The notes below the pieces were generated by a model that ran no database searches, was not told the DNA's origin, and was given only the letters and a program-made list of their open reading frames with translations. From positions 120,519 through 184,518 of IMG/VR virus record IMGVR_UViG_3300045988_112927: 64,000 nt of DNA; one strand, 5' to 3'. The translations under genes were made by a program, and so were the position numbers. Of this stretch, positions 1,766 to 60,277 are shown in pieces; the first letter of the stretch is position 1; each line of letters begins with the position of its first letter. The stretch comes from a virus.

Positions 1766-1794
1766 TTGATTTTTATAAAAAATTATGATATAAT
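1766..1794 (+). promoter_or_regulatory. Consensus promoter repeat P1 (TTGATT-17-TATAAT, extended TG -10)
   Basis: TTGATTTTTATAAAAAATTATGATATAAT. First of two tandem promoters upstream of the tRNA-Ile and ncRNA cluster. Confidence 0.7.
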
Positions 1795-1827
1795 ATATAT
1801 AGAAATTGAGAAAGAGATTTTTGAAAA

Positions 1828-1856
1828 TTGACTTTTTCAAAAAAATATGATATAAT
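1828..1856 (+). promoter_or_regulatory. Consensus promoter repeat P2 (TTGACT-17-TATAAT)
   Basis: TTGACTTTTTCAAAAAAATATGATATAAT followed by the conserved ATATATGTAAGATAAAGA leader. Confidence 0.7.
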
Positions 1857-1966
1857 ATATATGTAAGATAAAGACAGACACAGCAATGTGCAAATAATAG
1901 AAAAACAGTTTTAAAAATATCCTTTCTTTTATAGTTTTTAAGTATTTTCTGTCTTGTAGAGATTAT

Positions 1967-2040
1967 GCTGATGTAATTCAGTTGGTTAGAATGCTCGTCT
2001 GATACGCGAGTCGCCAGTGGTTCGAGTCCACTCATCAGCA
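1967..2040 (+). tRNA. tRNA-Ile(GAU)
   Basis: Cloverleaf read by eye: acceptor GCTGATG/CATCAGC, anticodon loop CTGATAC, T-arm AGTGG-TTCGAGT-CCACT. Confidence 0.65.
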
Positions 2041-2278
2041 CTGACAAGTTAAAAGAGTTAGGTCCAAATCGCTCGATATTGGGCAGGCGAGGTACAGTGA
2101 GATTTGGTTACTTAGGATAGTGGGACGGCACGATGACCCCTAAGAGAAAAAACCTACGCCTGGGAACTGGTAGTGGAACCTGCAAGGGGGTAACCCGAAA
2201 TCCGTGGGGTTATCATAGTAGCGTAAGCGTGTGGCTGAAATATGACCACCCGCCCAATAAATAACTTGTCTTTTTTAA
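2041..2278 (+). ncRNA. ORF-free structured spacer, candidate ncRNA
   Basis: 238 nt with no ORF between two tRNAs. The long-range complement TTGGGCAGGCG (about 2078) / CCACCCGCCCAA (about 2248) encloses internal hairpins such as GTAACCC..GGGGTTA. Confidence 0.3.
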
Positions 2279-2353
2279 CGGGGTATAGCGCAGTTTGGTT
2301 GGCGCGCTTGATTTGGGTTCAAGAGGTCGTGGGTTCGAATCCCGCTACCCCGA
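2279..2353 (+). tRNA. tRNA-Pro(UGG)
   Basis: Acceptor CGGGGTA/TACCCCG, anticodon stem CTTGA/TCAAG with loop TTTGGGT, T-arm GTGGG-TTCGAAT-CCCGC. Confidence 0.65.
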
Positions 2354-2522
2354 CTTAAGACGCTTTATCAGCAATTTTTTATCAAATTATTGATAATAAC
2401 ATCTGAAGAACGCTGATTGGTCATCAGCTCCAGCTTTATACTCATATTTGTAGAGGGAATAAACAAGAATATGGGTTGGCAGACATTGTTAAAATTCCTA
2501 TGCGTCTTGGAGGAGAATTCAT

Positions 2523-2744
2523 ATGGCAAAGAAAACAATTACAATCGAAATTGATGAAAACGCATTTAATGGCTTGAATAATGCAGTAATTGCTTATTTA
2601 GATGTTGTTAGTGCTTGTTTTTTAAGATGTGAGGTTAACAGTAAGTTTGAAAAGTTAAAAACACTTTCAGATGAACAATTACTGGCAAGAAGAGATAGTT
2701 TAGTAGATATGTACCATCAAGTTGAAAAACAATTTCTTGATTGA
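2523..2744 (+). CDS. hypothetical protein
   Basis: 73-aa ORF with RBS GGAGGAGAATTCAT upstream. Confidence 0.35.
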   Translation: MAKKTITIEIDENAFNGLNNAVIAYLDVVSACFLRCEVNSKFEKLKTLSDEQLLARRDSLVDMYHQVEKQFLD

Positions 2745-2769
2745 TTTTTTATAAAAAATATGATATAAT
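2741..2769 (+). promoter_or_regulatory. Consensus promoter repeat P3
   Basis: TTGATTTTTTATAAAAAATATGATATAAT. It precedes tRNA-Val and overlaps the stop of ORF 2523. Confidence 0.65.
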
Positions 2770-57427: not shown

Positions 57428-58093
57428 ATGACTTGTGGTATTTATAAAATAGAAAATTTAATCAATAATAAAATCTATATAGGTCAAAGTATAGAAATAG
57501 AAAATAGATTTCAAAAGCATCTCAATGCGAAGGATGATTTTCATATTCATAAAGCATTAAGAAAATATGGTAAGGATAAATTTACTTTTCAAATTATTGA
57601 AGAGTGTAGTCCAGAATTATTAGATGAAAGAGAAAAATATTGGATAGAGTATTATAATTCTTTGACACCTAATGGATATAATATGATACCTGGAGGAAGT
57701 AATGGCGCAGGGCTTGCAAAAGGAGAATCAGTAGAGCAATATGATTTTAATGGGGAGTTAATTGCTGTTTACCCTAGTGCAAATCAAGCAAGTATTGCTA
57801 CAGGTATAGACCATTGGAGTATTTGCGCATGCTGTAGAGGAGAATATAAAAGAGCTGGAAATTTTATCTGGAAATATTCTAATAGCATCAAACAAATAGA
57901 GCCAATAAGTCAGCGTACAGATTTCACCGTGTTGCAATTAGACAAAAAAAATGATATAATAATATCAGAATTTAAGTCTATAACTGAAGCGTCAAAGGCA
58001 ACTAATATTGCCAAAGCAACTATATGCAATGTTTGCAATGGTAAAGGAAAAACAGCAGGTGGATTTAAATGGAAATATAAATATGATAAATAA
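57428..58093 (+). CDS. free-standing GIY-YIG homing-endonuclease-like protein
   Basis: CGIYKIENLINNKIYIGQSIEIENRFQKH and YNMIPGGSNG. The C-terminal half probably holds DNA-binding repeats. Confidence 0.6.
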   Translation: MTCGIYKIENLINNKIYIGQSIEIENRFQKHLNAKDDFHIHKALRKYGKDKFTFQIIEECSPELLDEREKYWIEYYNSLTPNGYNMIPGGSNGAGLAKGESVEQYDFNGELIAVYPSANQASIATGIDHWSICACCRGEYKRAGNFIWKYSNSIKQIEPISQRTDFTVLQLDKKNDIIISEFKSITEASKATNIAKATICNVCNGKGKTAGGFKWKYKYDK

Positions 58094-58116
58094 TAATTTA
58101 TTAAAGGAGACTAATT

Positions 58117-59055
58117 ATGAAAAATTCAATGATTAACAAGAGCCATATTGAAGGTGTATTATATCAGCATGATTTGGAATTAAAGGTTACTGGAGAGAAC
58201 TCTAAGAACCCTGGTACTGAGTTTATCTCAGGTAATATCGAAATCGCAACTGATGATGCAGGTGTAAACATTGTTCCAGTTCATTTCACTTATGTAACTG
58301 CTACAACTTCAAAGGGTAAGGCTAATGCATCATTCCAGACTTTGAATGATATTATCACAGGTAAGTTAGGAACTGTTATGAAAGATGGCGCTGATAAGGC
58401 CGCTAAACTTCGTATTGATTCTGCTATTGGTCTTAATGAGTTCTATTCAGATAGAAACGGTCAGGAAGAGCTTGTTAGCGTTAAGCGTAATGAGGGTGGA
58501 TTTATCCATGTTGTTAACGCTTTGAACGAGGATGAGAAAACTCGTAATACTTTTGAGGTAGATATGATTATCACTAATGTTACTCGTATCGAAGCAAATG
58601 AAGAGAGACAGACCCCTGAGAAAGTTATCGTAAGAGGTACTACTTTCAACTTCAGAAATGATATCCTTCCTATCGAGTTATCTGTAACAAATCCTAATGC
58701 TATGGATTACTTTGAGGGTCTTGGAGCTTCTTCTAAGGAGCCAGTATTCACAAGAGTTAAGGGACGTCAGGTTTCTGAAACTGTTGTAAGAACTATCACA
58801 GAGGAATCTGCTTTTGGTGAAGATTCTGTCCGTGAGGTTAAGAGTACCCGCAAGGATTTCGTTATCACATGGGCTATGAAAGAGCCTTACGTATGGGATG
58901 ATGAGAGCACAATTACTGCGGCTGAGTTGTCTGAATTAGTTGCTAAGAGAGAAACTGATTTAGCTGCTATGAAGGCTCGTAGCGATGAATATAAAGCTTC
59001 TAGAAACGGTGGCGCTGCAGCCGCTGCTCCTAAAGCAGGTGGGTTCGATTTCTAA
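58117..59055 (+). CDS. hypothetical protein, possibly ssDNA-binding (flexible Ala-rich tail ending GGFDF)
   Basis: The C-terminus RNGGAAAAAPKAGGFDF resembles an SSB-type tail tip. No other motif. Confidence 0.25.
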   Translation: MKNSMINKSHIEGVLYQHDLELKVTGENSKNPGTEFISGNIEIATDDAGVNIVPVHFTYVTATTSKGKANASFQTLNDIITGKLGTVMKDGADKAAKLRIDSAIGLNEFYSDRNGQEELVSVKRNEGGFIHVVNALNEDEKTRNTFEVDMIITNVTRIEANEERQTPEKVIVRGTTFNFRNDILPIELSVTNPNAMDYFEGLGASSKEPVFTRVKGRQVSETVVRTITEESAFGEDSVREVKSTRKDFVITWAMKEPYVWDDESTITAAELSELVAKRETDLAAMKARSDEYKASRNGGAAAAAPKAGGFDF

Positions 59056-59137
59056 TTGAACCCCCTCCCCACGAGGGGTTATTGATTTAAGATTTAGAAT
59101 AAAATAAACATAGATAATTTTATAAGGAGAATAAAAA

Positions 59138-60121
59138 ATGGGAAATTCATTATTGGATATTAAACCTCATGAGGTAAGTAGAGACCTTCGTGGATATTCT
59201 GTTCTGTTTTATGGAACACCTAAGTCTGGTAAGACTACAATCGCTTCAAAGTTCCCTAATGCTCTTTTGTTAGCTTTTGAGAAAGGTTACAACGCAATTC
59301 CTGGAGTAAGAGCGAAGGATATTAACTCTTGGAGTGATTTCAAGAAAACTCTTCGTGAGTTAAATGACCCAGAAGTAAAGAAAGTGTTTGAAACAGTTAT
59401 TATTGATACTGCTGATATCGCTTACTCTTACTGCGAGAAGTATATTTGCGCGCAGGCTTCTGATGCTAAGAACTCATATGATAACATTGCTTCTATTCCT
59501 TATGGTAAAGGATATAAGATGGCCATGACAGAGTTTGATGAGTGCATCAGAAAAATTCTTCAGATGAACTATGGTTTAGTTCTTATTTCTCACTCTGAGG
59601 ATAAGACATTTACCGATGAAAATGGAAATGAGTTTTCACAGATTGTTCCTACTCTTGATAAGAGAGCAAGACTTGTTTGTGAGAGAACTTGTGACATTAT
59701 CGGTTTCTCAAAGGCTGTAGATACAGAAGAGGGAACTAAGACAAGACTATATATGCGTGGAACAACTCGTTATGTAGCTGGCTCTCGTTTTGCATATACC
59801 CCTGATTCAATCGAATTCACATATACAAACTTAGTAAATGCTATTGCAGATGCTATTGATAAGATTGAGCAAGAAGGCGGTTCTGTAACTGATGTAAGAA
59901 ATCAGTCTTATACAGAAGATGTTGTATATGATTTCCCTGCTATGATGGAAGAGTTCCAGACCATTGTTGGAAAGATGATGGAAAATGGTTCTCCTACAAA
60001 TGCAGCTAAGATTACTGAAATTGTAGAATCTCATCTTGGCAAAGGAAAGAAAGTTGGAGATTGTACATCTGAACAGGCACCTCAGTTGGATATGATTTTA
60101 TTCGATTTGAAGCGTCTGTAA
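59138..60121 (+). CDS. RecA-fold ATPase of the AAA_24/Sak4-like phage recombination family
   Basis: Walker A VLFYGTPKSGKTT and Walker B VIIDTAD. Confidence 0.5.
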   Translation: MGNSLLDIKPHEVSRDLRGYSVLFYGTPKSGKTTIASKFPNALLLAFEKGYNAIPGVRAKDINSWSDFKKTLRELNDPEVKKVFETVIIDTADIAYSYCEKYICAQASDAKNSYDNIASIPYGKGYKMAMTEFDECIRKILQMNYGLVLISHSEDKTFTDENGNEFSQIVPTLDKRARLVCERTCDIIGFSKAVDTEEGTKTRLYMRGTTRYVAGSRFAYTPDSIEFTYTNLVNAIADAIDKIEQEGGSVTDVRNQSYTEDVVYDFPAMMEEFQTIVGKMMENGSPTNAAKITEIVESHLGKGKKVGDCTSEQAPQLDMILFDLKRL

Positions 60122-60140
60122 TTAAATAAAAAAATACAAA

Positions 60141-60162
60141 GCTAGGGACTTATATCCCTAGC
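60141..60162 (+). terminator. terminator-like hairpin
   Basis: GCTAGGGACTTATATCCCTAGC, directly abutting promoter P26. Confidence 0.45.
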
Positions 60163-60191
60163 TTGATTTTTTATTAAAAATATATTATAAT
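60163..60191 (+). promoter_or_regulatory. Consensus promoter repeat P26
   Basis: TTGATTTTTTATTAAAAATATATTATAAT. Confidence 0.6.
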
Positions 60192-60248
60192 ATATATAGA
60201 TATGGAAATATAAGAAAATACTATCGGTGCGAGCGCCGGAGCATTAAC

Positions 60249-60277
60249 TTGATTTTTTGTAAAAAATATGGTATAAT
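60249..60277 (+). promoter_or_regulatory. Consensus promoter repeat P27
   Basis: TTGATTTTTTGTAAAAAATATGGTATAAT. Confidence 0.65.

Follow-up and report, generated by a model that had tools for sequence, protein, structure and literature searches.

The DNA analysed here is a stretch of 64,000 nucleotides (positions 120,519 to 184,518 of the IMG/VR virus record IMGVR_UViG_3300045988_112927, hereafter the window), which corresponds to approximately 42.2-106.2 kb of a 190,353-bp metagenomic contig (ENA ERZ27229705 k119_78680) and offers a view of about one third of the phage genome. All genes of the window lie on the + strand; they include tRNA and non-coding RNA clusters, genes for NAD salvage, RNA repair, DNA gyrase, DNA ligase and replication, and a gene for a SigA-like sigma factor. 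The gaps between them hold a family of 27 repeated promoter modules, which is the subject of this work and is most probably read by the primary sigma factor of the host.

Members, anatomy and placement of the promoter family

The pattern TTGAYT-N17-TATAAT was found 27 times in the window, in all cases (27/27) on the + strand, against a mean of 0.11 in dinucleotide-preserving shuffles (maximum in any shuffle, 1). The repetition and single orientation described in the initial annotation were thus confirmed, with two corrections of membership. One match (639-667) lies inside an AAA-ATPase open reading frame (ORF; 146-907) and was excluded as a stray because it has an ordinary spacer that is not A/T-built, no TG and no downstream block, and the other 26 copies, within 1766-60277, have the whole long module in common. 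Scanning both strands with a 51-nt weight matrix built from the module family gave 27 true members, namely these 26 exact copies and an additional one at 47140, upstream of gyrB, whose -10 element is TATACT. The members scored 32-63 bits, compared with 9.4 bits for the next site on the + strand and 7.4 for the best site on the - strand. The copies had been called near-identical, which was overstated: mean pairwise identity among the 27 members is 75% over 47 nt (range 57-96%). The family runs on beyond both ends of the window, with at least five more copies in 20 kb of extra sequence, and at least 32 modules are present in the 84 kb seen. No Rfam match was obtained at the module sites, which gives no sign of the modules being RNA elements. 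A perfect TTGACA-N17-TATAAT was also observed at 54394-54422 (+), at the 3' end of the ligase gene and before an ORF at 54454-54648; it stands outside the module family.

The family consensus reads TTGATTTTT..tAAAAAatATGaTATAATATaTATatAAgataaaga. Its -35 element is TTGATT in 23 and TTGACT in four of the 27 members, TTGACA being found in none (0/27), and its -10 element is TATAAT in 26 and TATACT in one. The invariant 17-bp spacer reported earlier holds for every member (27/27), as does the general description of this region as A/T-rich with an extended -10: the spacers are 92% A+T, and TG is present at -15/-14 in 24/27, in the Firmicute form TRTG in 14/27. The spacer is built of a T-tract, a low-information centre, an A-tract and then the (T)ATG of the extended -10, and the information profile drops exactly at spacer positions 4-6, the site of the few C and G bases. 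The -10 element is followed by an AT discriminator, and transcripts would begin with a purine at +1 and run into purine-rich sequence devoid of C. With +1 taken as the 7th base after TATAAT, the predicted first base is A in 21 copies, G in four and T in two (purine in 25/27). The downstream block ATATAT(A/G)TAAGATAAAGA, previously described as usual, was only partly upheld, since just 8/27 copies lie within 3 mismatches of its 18 nt and 16/27 within 5, while the consensus at each position and the purine-rich, C-free character do hold.

The -35 and -10 elements, the spacing within 16-18 bp, the extended -10 and the position and orientation expected of a sigma-70/sigma-A promoter are all present in this family, and every computational test agreed with promoters of this type. 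A cross-phylum study has reported that strong spacers, both natural and selected, run from a T-rich tract by the -35 element through a low-signal centre with slight G/C enrichment and a further A/T tract to a G/TG region, that TRTG is the Firmicute form of the extended -10, and that discriminators of Terrabacteria are AT-rich or AG-rich and initially transcribed regions of Firmicutes AG-rich (PMC12641261); the TRTG element was described by Voskuil and Chambliss, as cited in PMC6570832. Almost all elements that are known to strengthen promoters in Firmicutes are combined in the module, which, judged by its sequence, reads as a maximal version of a sigma-A promoter. Promoter escape is strongly set by the initially transcribed sequence, notably at the N25 promoter of phage T5 (PMC12464699, PMC5961368), which provides a plausible reason for a fixed, C-free and purine-rich start on promoters that bind the polymerase very tightly.

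All 27 modules are intergenic and co-oriented with the genes, and from 12 kb onward they occupy nearly every intergenic gap of at least 75 nt. Where the target codes for protein, the distance from the predicted +1 to a start codon with a Shine-Dalgarno sequence is 19-60 nt; other modules lie 93-178 nt ahead of tRNAs, or ahead of longer leaders (213 nt, DUF2828 gene). The placement ahead of gene starts or tRNA clusters noted before therefore stands, each copy having either Shine-Dalgarno-preceded starts or clusters of tRNA and non-coding RNA downstream. Two tandem pairs are present in the window (1766/1828 and 60163/60249).

Intrinsic terminators accompany part of the family. A strong hairpin with a T-tract ending no more than 14 nt from the -35 element was found upstream of 9/27 modules but at only 2% of random positions, and two further modules have a terminator approximately 27 nt upstream (total 11/27), leaving 16/27 with none; a looser hairpin test (minimum free energy <=-8 within 16 nt) was dropped because 51% of random positions pass it. 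The proposals that the modules often follow a terminator and that they delimit insulated units are thus appropriate for about 40% of the copies and do not extend to the remainder. The hairpin abuts or overlaps the -35 element at 33306, 34937, 37873, 52401 and 60163, and at these sites the TTGATTTTT of the promoter is at the same time the T-tract of the terminator, suggesting a compact fusion of terminator and promoter that insulates the units. Good terminators at 13894, 20045, 43785, 55039 and 59062 have no module after them.

The phage sigma factor and recognition of the modules

The sigma-70 family ORF recognised in the initial annotation was verified by Pfam, which detected regions 1.2, 2, 3 and 4. 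The protein is nearest to the RpoD/SigA models, scoring 385-405 bits with the NCBIfam RpoD models against cut-offs of 555-572, and aligns end to end with SigA of B. subtilis, S. aureus and C. difficile and with the SigA chains of the RNA polymerase structures 8x6f, 7ckq and 7l7b. Its -35 recognition helix is identical to that of SigA, with TRERIRQIE in region 4.2; region 3.0 reads HM(L/V)(D/E)T with the histidine kept (HMLD vs HMVE in SigA), and region 2.4 reads YAT(W/Y)WI(R/K)Q when compared with YATWWIRQAITR of SigA. Related phage sigmas form a clade of approximately 45 unnamed clusters (59-98% identity, contigs up to 198 kb), separate from the bacterial RpoD of Bacillota, which shows at most 58% identity. 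Pfam Sigma70_r1_1 is absent from this clade and present in the bacterial homologues; together with scores under the equivalog cut-offs, this indicates a SigA-like protein that is not an orthologue. The phage sigmas also have a one-residue insertion and clade-specific substitutions, all outside the DNA-reading helices, while the clade consensus keeps the canonical residues that read the -35, the extended -10 and the -10. An altered specificity was considered and found unsupported, the W->Y and R->K changes in region 2.4 not being clade-wide and a T->S change falling at a position that varies within the clade. Given the canonical DNA-reading residues, a host-like specificity is predicted, and the phage sigma very probably reads the same promoters as host sigma-A. 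The sigma gene of the window is immediately preceded by a terminator and a module, and the same holds for three contigs of related phages (four loci: L102, L034 and L011/L096); identical sigma genes are present in other gut metagenome assemblies. A literature search on phage-encoded RpoD returned nothing relevant.

The distribution of the modules was then examined in related phages. When 8 kb of the window were compared by megablast with 50,697 phage records, no match was obtained, implying that no deposited phage is closely related to this one, and a locus search with the single sigma sequence returned one distant locus only. Relatives were gathered by a scan for the promoter pattern, plus tblastn within the fetched loci (238 loci). 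A core of 22 specified bases was found in at least 117 stretches in IMG/VR, some of them on contigs of 130 to 200 kb and one on a contig of 402 kb; in many of these stretches, the shared genes have 65-75% nucleotide identity to the window and the modules 85-92%. The matrix scan gave 436 modules of at least 40 bits in the 238 loci (381 distinct 51-mers), whose consensus is that of the window, and no locus has modules on both strands. The predicted +1 is a purine in 100% of the 436 modules and C accounts for no more than 2% at nearly all positions between +1 and +15, features that the matrix, extending to +13, itself imposes in part. The same consensus across phages with substantially diverged genes suggests selection on sequence and function and not recent copying, and the idea that the module is a defining regulatory repeat of this phage group is supported by these loci.

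More distant relatives have comparable promoters. In the cultured Enterococcus phage VRE9_3, whose replication module is syntenic with that of the window, intergenic promoters have the form TTGAyTTTTT-17 bp-ATGATATAAT-N6-TATAAaGtTAAA and score 24-33 bits with the window matrix, and the yorE and yorZ promoters of SPbeta are TAGACA-N17-TATAAT with near-identical spacers and correspond to SPBRE sites, to which the master repressor MrpR binds (PMC10516654). An unrelated element on the - strand of a bacterial metagenome-assembled genome (MAG; locus L209, 360-6564) was also observed to carry its own set of about 12 near-identical promoters (TTGACAAAtc...tGTGgTATAAT), implying that repeated promoter modules recur in mobile elements of Clostridia.

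Several observations bear on the choice between host sigma-A and phage sigma, which the initial annotation had left open. A scan of bacterial genomes gave at least 120 occurrences of the core TTGATTTTT-N3-AAAAA-NN-ATG-N-TATAATAT. Roughly half of the stretches belong to phage contigs that had been binned into MAGs, each with several modules of 50-62 bits; in the others, single sites lie on contigs of 41-58% G+C assigned to Ruminococcus (the isolate R. flavefaciens MA2007 among them), Oscillospiraceae, Eubacteriales and further Clostridia. Such host sites are properly placed before ordinary genes (a RadA-like gene, tRNA genes), and the phage start block is absent from them. Moreover, the sigma gene itself lies behind a module, so that the phage sigma is no prerequisite for module activity and host sigma-A would have to fire first. 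Among cultured phages, 19 Enterococcus phage records carry a homologue of the helicase, fewer than six Enterococcus records give any sigma match, and the two matches listed look like host fragments; most of the 19 relatives appear to be without a sigma homologue, and VRE9_3, the sole Enterococcus relative examined for promoters, shows the same promoter style. The evidence favours recognition of the modules by host sigma-A, at least at the onset of infection.

The preferred interpretation, to which a probability of about 0.72 is given, is that the 27 modules are strong primary-sigma (sigma-A/sigma-70) promoters driving early and middle genes of a ~190-kb uncultured gut/rumen Clostridia phage. 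Upon DNA entry, host RNA polymerase with host sigma-A would fire the modules, one of which would express the SigA-like phage sigma; this factor would most likely sustain or boost the same promoters later in infection, and might resist some host or phage control of sigma-A. The targets would comprise the clusters of tRNA and non-coding RNA, NAD salvage, RNA repair (likely counter-defence), sigma, gyrase, ligase and the replication module, with upstream terminators giving compact, insulated units where they are present. A number of points weigh against this interpretation. The neighbouring host promoters in the core loci are mostly TTGACA with ordinary spacers, and the search pattern itself imposed the T-tract and the A-tract; the core sites hence represent a subset of host promoters and indicate that hosts use this form, not that it is their general form. 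The conservation of the start region, which is confined to phages and absent from host promoters, is unexplained by sigma recognition alone. The Clostridial host is deduced solely from MAG bin labels and the occurrence of the core, and the interpretation extends to about one third of the genome, not to the late genes or to any part that the sigma plays there.

It is also conceivable, but improbable, that the SigA-like factor of the phage reads the modules preferentially or exclusively, by way of TTGATT, the extended -10 and the AT discriminator, with host sigma-A contributing only a first trickle to a private, self-amplifying circuit. The conserved clade standing apart from bacterial RpoD, with its missing region 1.1, one-residue insertion and private substitutions, would agree with this, as would the TTGAtT form of the -35 with TTGACA nowhere in the family, and the position of the sigma gene under a module in several relatives would give positive feedback. 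The DNA-reading residues are canonical and predict no altered specificity, however, an identical core stands in front of ordinary host genes, expression of the sigma gene requires a pre-existing holoenzyme, and most of the cultured Enterococcus relatives apparently manage without such a sigma, VRE9_3 having the same promoter style. An equally low probability is assigned to a semi-private housekeeping system, in which a clade-specific SigA paralogue without region 1.1, expressed from its own module, would be paired with promoters whose ATATAT-RTAAGATAAAGA block suits that sigma or marks every early transcript with a shared 5' tag for a phage factor; in that case, some 30 to 80 promoters would stay active while host sigma-A is inhibited or outcompeted.

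Two other explanations were considered. Outside the sigma contacts, the palindromic T5-N-A5/6 of the spacer and the ATATAT-RTAAGATAAAGA start region might form a site for a global phage regulator, or a tag at the RNA level, that switches all copies, on the model of SPBRE and MrpR in SPbeta. Since the start block is conserved in phages but not in host promoters sharing the core, this analogy would allow for a site bound by a regulator or for a 5' RNA tag common to all copies; a similar block, TATAAaGtTAAA, follows the promoters of VRE9_3, a phage of a host from a different class, and the replication module is of the SPbeta type, SPbeta having repeated, near-identical promoters with a 15-bp SPBRE bound by MrpR (PMC10516654). 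Nevertheless, the T-tract and A-tract of the spacer also occur in host promoters of many Clostridia, where no phage factor is needed, a purine-rich start is a generic Firmicute feature (PMC12641261), 8/27 copies near the 18-nt consensus would be loose for an operator, and no recombinase-like, helix-turn-helix, MrpR-like or other candidate regulator was detected among the window proteins scanned, all of which makes such a site unlikely. Less likely again is the view that the modules are mobile cassettes of the PeSL type, in which recombination or gene conversion would maintain the likeness of copies, crossover at these points would shuffle genes and promoter function would be secondary. The composites of terminator and promoter do resemble the PeSLs of T4-type phages (PMC2839356, PMC4122927), tandem copies lie 62-89 bp apart, and some changes are exactly bounded by modules: the unit 28337-30698 is replaced in two related loci (L099, L108), and the radical-SAM cassette 46041-47140 is absent in two others (L047, L056). 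Because of this resemblance, synteny breakpoints were compared by tblastx over the 238 loci; they were frequent throughout and were not enriched at modules (13/17 vs 32/52 at other boundaries, Fisher p = 0.38), and recombination junctions were rejected as the main explanation despite these single indels. The low mean identity of the window copies and the persistence of the consensus in phages whose genes are only 65-75% identical, which points to selection on function, argue in the same direction.

Gene content of the window

The modules and the sigma gene are listed below with the genes that each module is predicted to drive.

Coordinates of the promoter modules and of the phage sigma gene in the window (each module is given from the -35 element to approximately +12)
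Position	Strand	Feature and predicted targets	Basis
1766..1812	+	Module, first of tandem pair before tRNA-Ile/tRNA-Pro cluster	exact pattern; 57.8 bits
1828..1874	+	Module, second of tandem pair, 104 nt before tRNA-Ile (1967)	exact pattern; 58.4 bits
2741..2787	+	Module before tRNA-Val, tRNA run 3456-3843 and ROOL RNA 3879-4529	exact pattern; 62.6 bits
5064..5110	+	Module before small ORFs 5118-5608 and tRNA-Gln 5674	exact pattern; 58.6 bits
7710..7756	+	Weaker module without TG, 227 nt upstream of next module	exact pattern; 34.5 bits
7937..7983	+	Module before split tRNA-Asp 7998-8545 (PDDEXK_5 ORF inside), tRNA-Tyr, tRNA-Ser	exact pattern; 60.1 bits
10299..10345	+	Module, 93 nt before tRNA-Gly 10427	exact pattern; 52.6 bits
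10772..10818	+	Module before split tRNA 10831-11369 (PDDEXK_5 ORF inside)	exact pattern; 60.0 bits
12091..12137	+	Module, 213-nt leader, then DUF2828/DUF7788 gene 12339-13883	exact pattern; 61.4 bits
16693..16739	+	Module after terminator hairpin 16645-16682; 16757-18930 (RlaP-like, metallophosphatase)	exact pattern; matrix
18953..18999	+	Module (TTGACT) after terminator 18921-18943; phage sigma gene	exact pattern; 57.5 bits
19022..20038	+	Phage sigma, 338 aa, SigA/RpoD type, regions 1.2, 2, 3, 4	Pfam, alignment
20671..20717	+	Module; RNase_T 20738-21559, RNA ligase 21581-22996, on to NADAR 24269-24679	exact pattern; 58.2 bits
24733..24779	+	Module after hairpin 24692-24728 + T6; 24787-28286 (SIR2, YqeY, DUF488)	exact pattern; 63.5 bits
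28337..28383	+	Module after terminator 28294-28323; 28391-30678 (nucleotidyltransferase, Thg1)	exact pattern; matrix
30698..30744	+	Module; major-vault-protein-like gene 30761-33268	exact pattern; 57.3 bits
33306..33352	+	Module, TTGATTTTT = T-tract of terminator 33278-33307; isochorismatase, PRPP-synthetase-like gene	exact pattern; matrix
34937..34983	+	Module abutting terminator 34911-34933; NAMPT 35012-36523, Macro domain gene, NAD synthase	exact pattern; matrix
37873..37919	+	Module overlapping terminator 37842-37875; metallophosphatase 37934-38653	exact pattern; matrix
38669..38715	+	Module; 38750-41611 (AAA_33 kinase, metallophosphatase, flotillin-like)	exact pattern; 62.1 bits
41741..41787	+	Module, terminator 41619-41642 ~100 nt upstream; 41802-45979 (PIN-PhoH, lysin)	exact pattern; 38.4 bits
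46041..46087	+	Module 28 nt after terminator 45983-46013; radical-SAM gene 46096-47094	exact pattern; matrix
47140..47186	+	Module, -10 TATACT, 27 nt after terminator 47083-47113; gyrB through gyrA (47213-52368)	matrix only; 32.0 bits
52401..52447	+	Module abutting terminator 52374-52399; NAD-dependent DNA ligase 52465-54405	exact pattern; matrix
54656..54702	+	Module (TTGACT); 54751-55020	exact pattern; 41.9 bits
56947..56993	+	Module; 57016-60121 (YorF-like, AAA_24)	exact pattern; 51.2 bits
60163..60209	+	Module abutting hairpin 60139-60164, first of tandem pair	exact pattern; 43.3 bits
60249..60295	+	Module, second of tandem pair; YorH-like 60313-60834, DnaB-like helicase 60812-62356, onward	exact pattern; 55.5 bits

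The functions encoded in the window are typical of early and middle genes, takeover and counter-defence. The replication module comprises YorF-like, AAA_24/Sak4-like and YorH-like proteins, a DnaB-like helicase, a RecJ-like protein, a helicase and Pol III alpha, which match proteins of SPbeta-like Bacillus phages and of ~138-kb Enterococcus phages (helicase identity 39-44%). Gyrase A and B and an NAD-dependent ligase are also encoded, together with an RNA-repair set of RNA ligase, kinase, phosphatases and Thg1. Genes related to NAD are found at 24269-26342, 29009-29563 and 33369-37827 (NADAR, SIR2, nucleotidyltransferase, nicotinamidase-like isochorismatase, PRPP-synthetase-like, NAMPT, Macro and NAD synthase); they make up a near-complete NAD salvage route and possibly serve counter-defence. 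Two proteins are unusual in a phage, namely an 835-aa protein with a major-vault-protein shoulder and repeat domains (30761-33268), which has a module of its own, and a 511-aa SPFH/flotillin-like protein (40076-41611), which shares one.

The tRNA genes of the window include 15 standard and five interrupted ones. Four are split by inserts of 453-472 nt (920-1447, 7998-8545, 9356-9898 and 10831-11369), which sit at or near the anticodon loop (approximately position 38 in two well-called genes) and consist almost wholly of one PD-(D/E)XK ORF of the PDDEXK_5 family (986-1396, 8004-8501, 9394-9846 and 10898-11329). A fifth PDDEXK_5 paralogue lies at 6281-6706, and tRNA-Glu (4538-4656) carries an insert of 33 nt. 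Rfam detected no intron in the inserts, and they have no space for a group I ribozyme; the RNA ligase, kinase, phosphatases and Thg1 of the window could together cut and rejoin tRNA. The tRNA at 3456-3528 (+; 55.8 bits with the Rfam tRNA model) has the anticodon TTA and would decode the stop codon UAA; under the standard bacterial code, the ORFs of the window read normally. A full-length ROOL RNA (RF03087, 313 bits) lies at 3879-4529 (+), within the tRNA cluster downstream of the module at 2741, which agrees with an earlier report linking ROOL to phages and tRNAs (PMC5737381).

Some further features were observed near individual modules. The 213-nt untranslated leader (12126-12338) before the DUF2828/DUF7788 gene may contain a small RNA, and had no Rfam match at gathering thresholds. 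Small ORFs between gyrB and gyrA and two GIY-YIG endonuclease genes are also present (49056-49993, 55075-56022, 57428-58093); relatives without 57428-58093 and without the ORFs between gyrB and gyrA suggest that these are, by appearance, homing-endonuclease insertions.

Comparison with known promoter systems

Phage-encoded sigma factors such as T4 gp55, SPO1 gp28 and gp33/34 and phiEco32 gp36 are diverged proteins that redirect polymerase to non-host promoters. The sigma described here would resemble them in acting, as a phage product, on the host core polymerase in place of the host sigma or in competition with it, but it differs in being a near-complete SigA homologue with host-type recognition residues. 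Phage T5 has about a dozen early promoters with less extended identity, an E. coli host and no phage sigma, unlike the present phage. Its early promoters (N25) are otherwise similar to the modules, being very strong host-sigma promoters in which the spacers are A/T-rich and escape is governed by an A/purine-rich initially transcribed sequence (PMC12464699, PMC5961368).

The PeSLs of the T4-type phages phi1 and RB49 (PMC2839356, PMC4122927) also have much in common with the modules. Both systems comprise dozens of repeats (approximately 50 there, at least 32 in 84 kb here), in which a strong early promoter with sigma-70 consensus, combined with a stem-loop terminator in a part of the copies here, is located between genes, directly upstream of them, and would insulate small units. 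On the other hand, the present modules belong to another phage lineage with a Gram-positive host, have a conserved spacer and start region, and are accompanied by a primary-like sigma of the phage. Roughly 40% of the copies have the hairpin, which lies upstream of the -35 element or abuts it and is never between or over the hexamers, and recombination at the modules was not borne out (p = 0.38). In temperate SPbeta, SPBRE is a 15-bp operator with approximately 10 sites, bound by the master repressor MrpR (PMC10516654); the two phages have a related replication module (YorF, YorH, YorI and YorL homologues) and repeated intergenic promoters with near-identical spacers, whereas the -35 and spacer sequences differ, and no MrpR-like or lysogeny gene was seen in the part of the genome viewed. 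Compared with the canonical Firmicute sigma-A promoter with TRTG (PMC12641261), the modules have the same -35 TTGAnn, 17-bp spacer, (T)RTGnTATAAT, AT discriminator and AG-rich start, but at about 50 bits the phage copies stand far above ordinary promoters and add a lineage-specific start block.

The proposed mechanism belongs with a known kind, that of strong early phage promoters recognised by the primary sigma of the host, as in the T4 PeSLs, T5 and the SPbeta group, and no new mechanism is put forward. What is new is the undescribed clade of large uncultured gut/rumen phages in which the promoters are found, the degree and breadth of their conservation, which extends to the spacer and the start region, the overlap of terminator T-tract and -35 element, and the pairing with a near-canonical phage SigA paralogue under its own module. 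A promoter model of about 50 bits is thereby provided for an undescribed clade of 170-200-kb gut/rumen Clostridia phages, which could be used to segment their genomes into transcription units and to recognise relatives, and the module may be of use in Firmicutes as a portable part that combines a very strong promoter with a terminator. Two questions also become testable: the reason for which a phage carries a near-canonical housekeeping sigma, and the share of promoter strength that resides in the spacer and the initially transcribed region, both of which are held nearly fixed across hundreds of copies.

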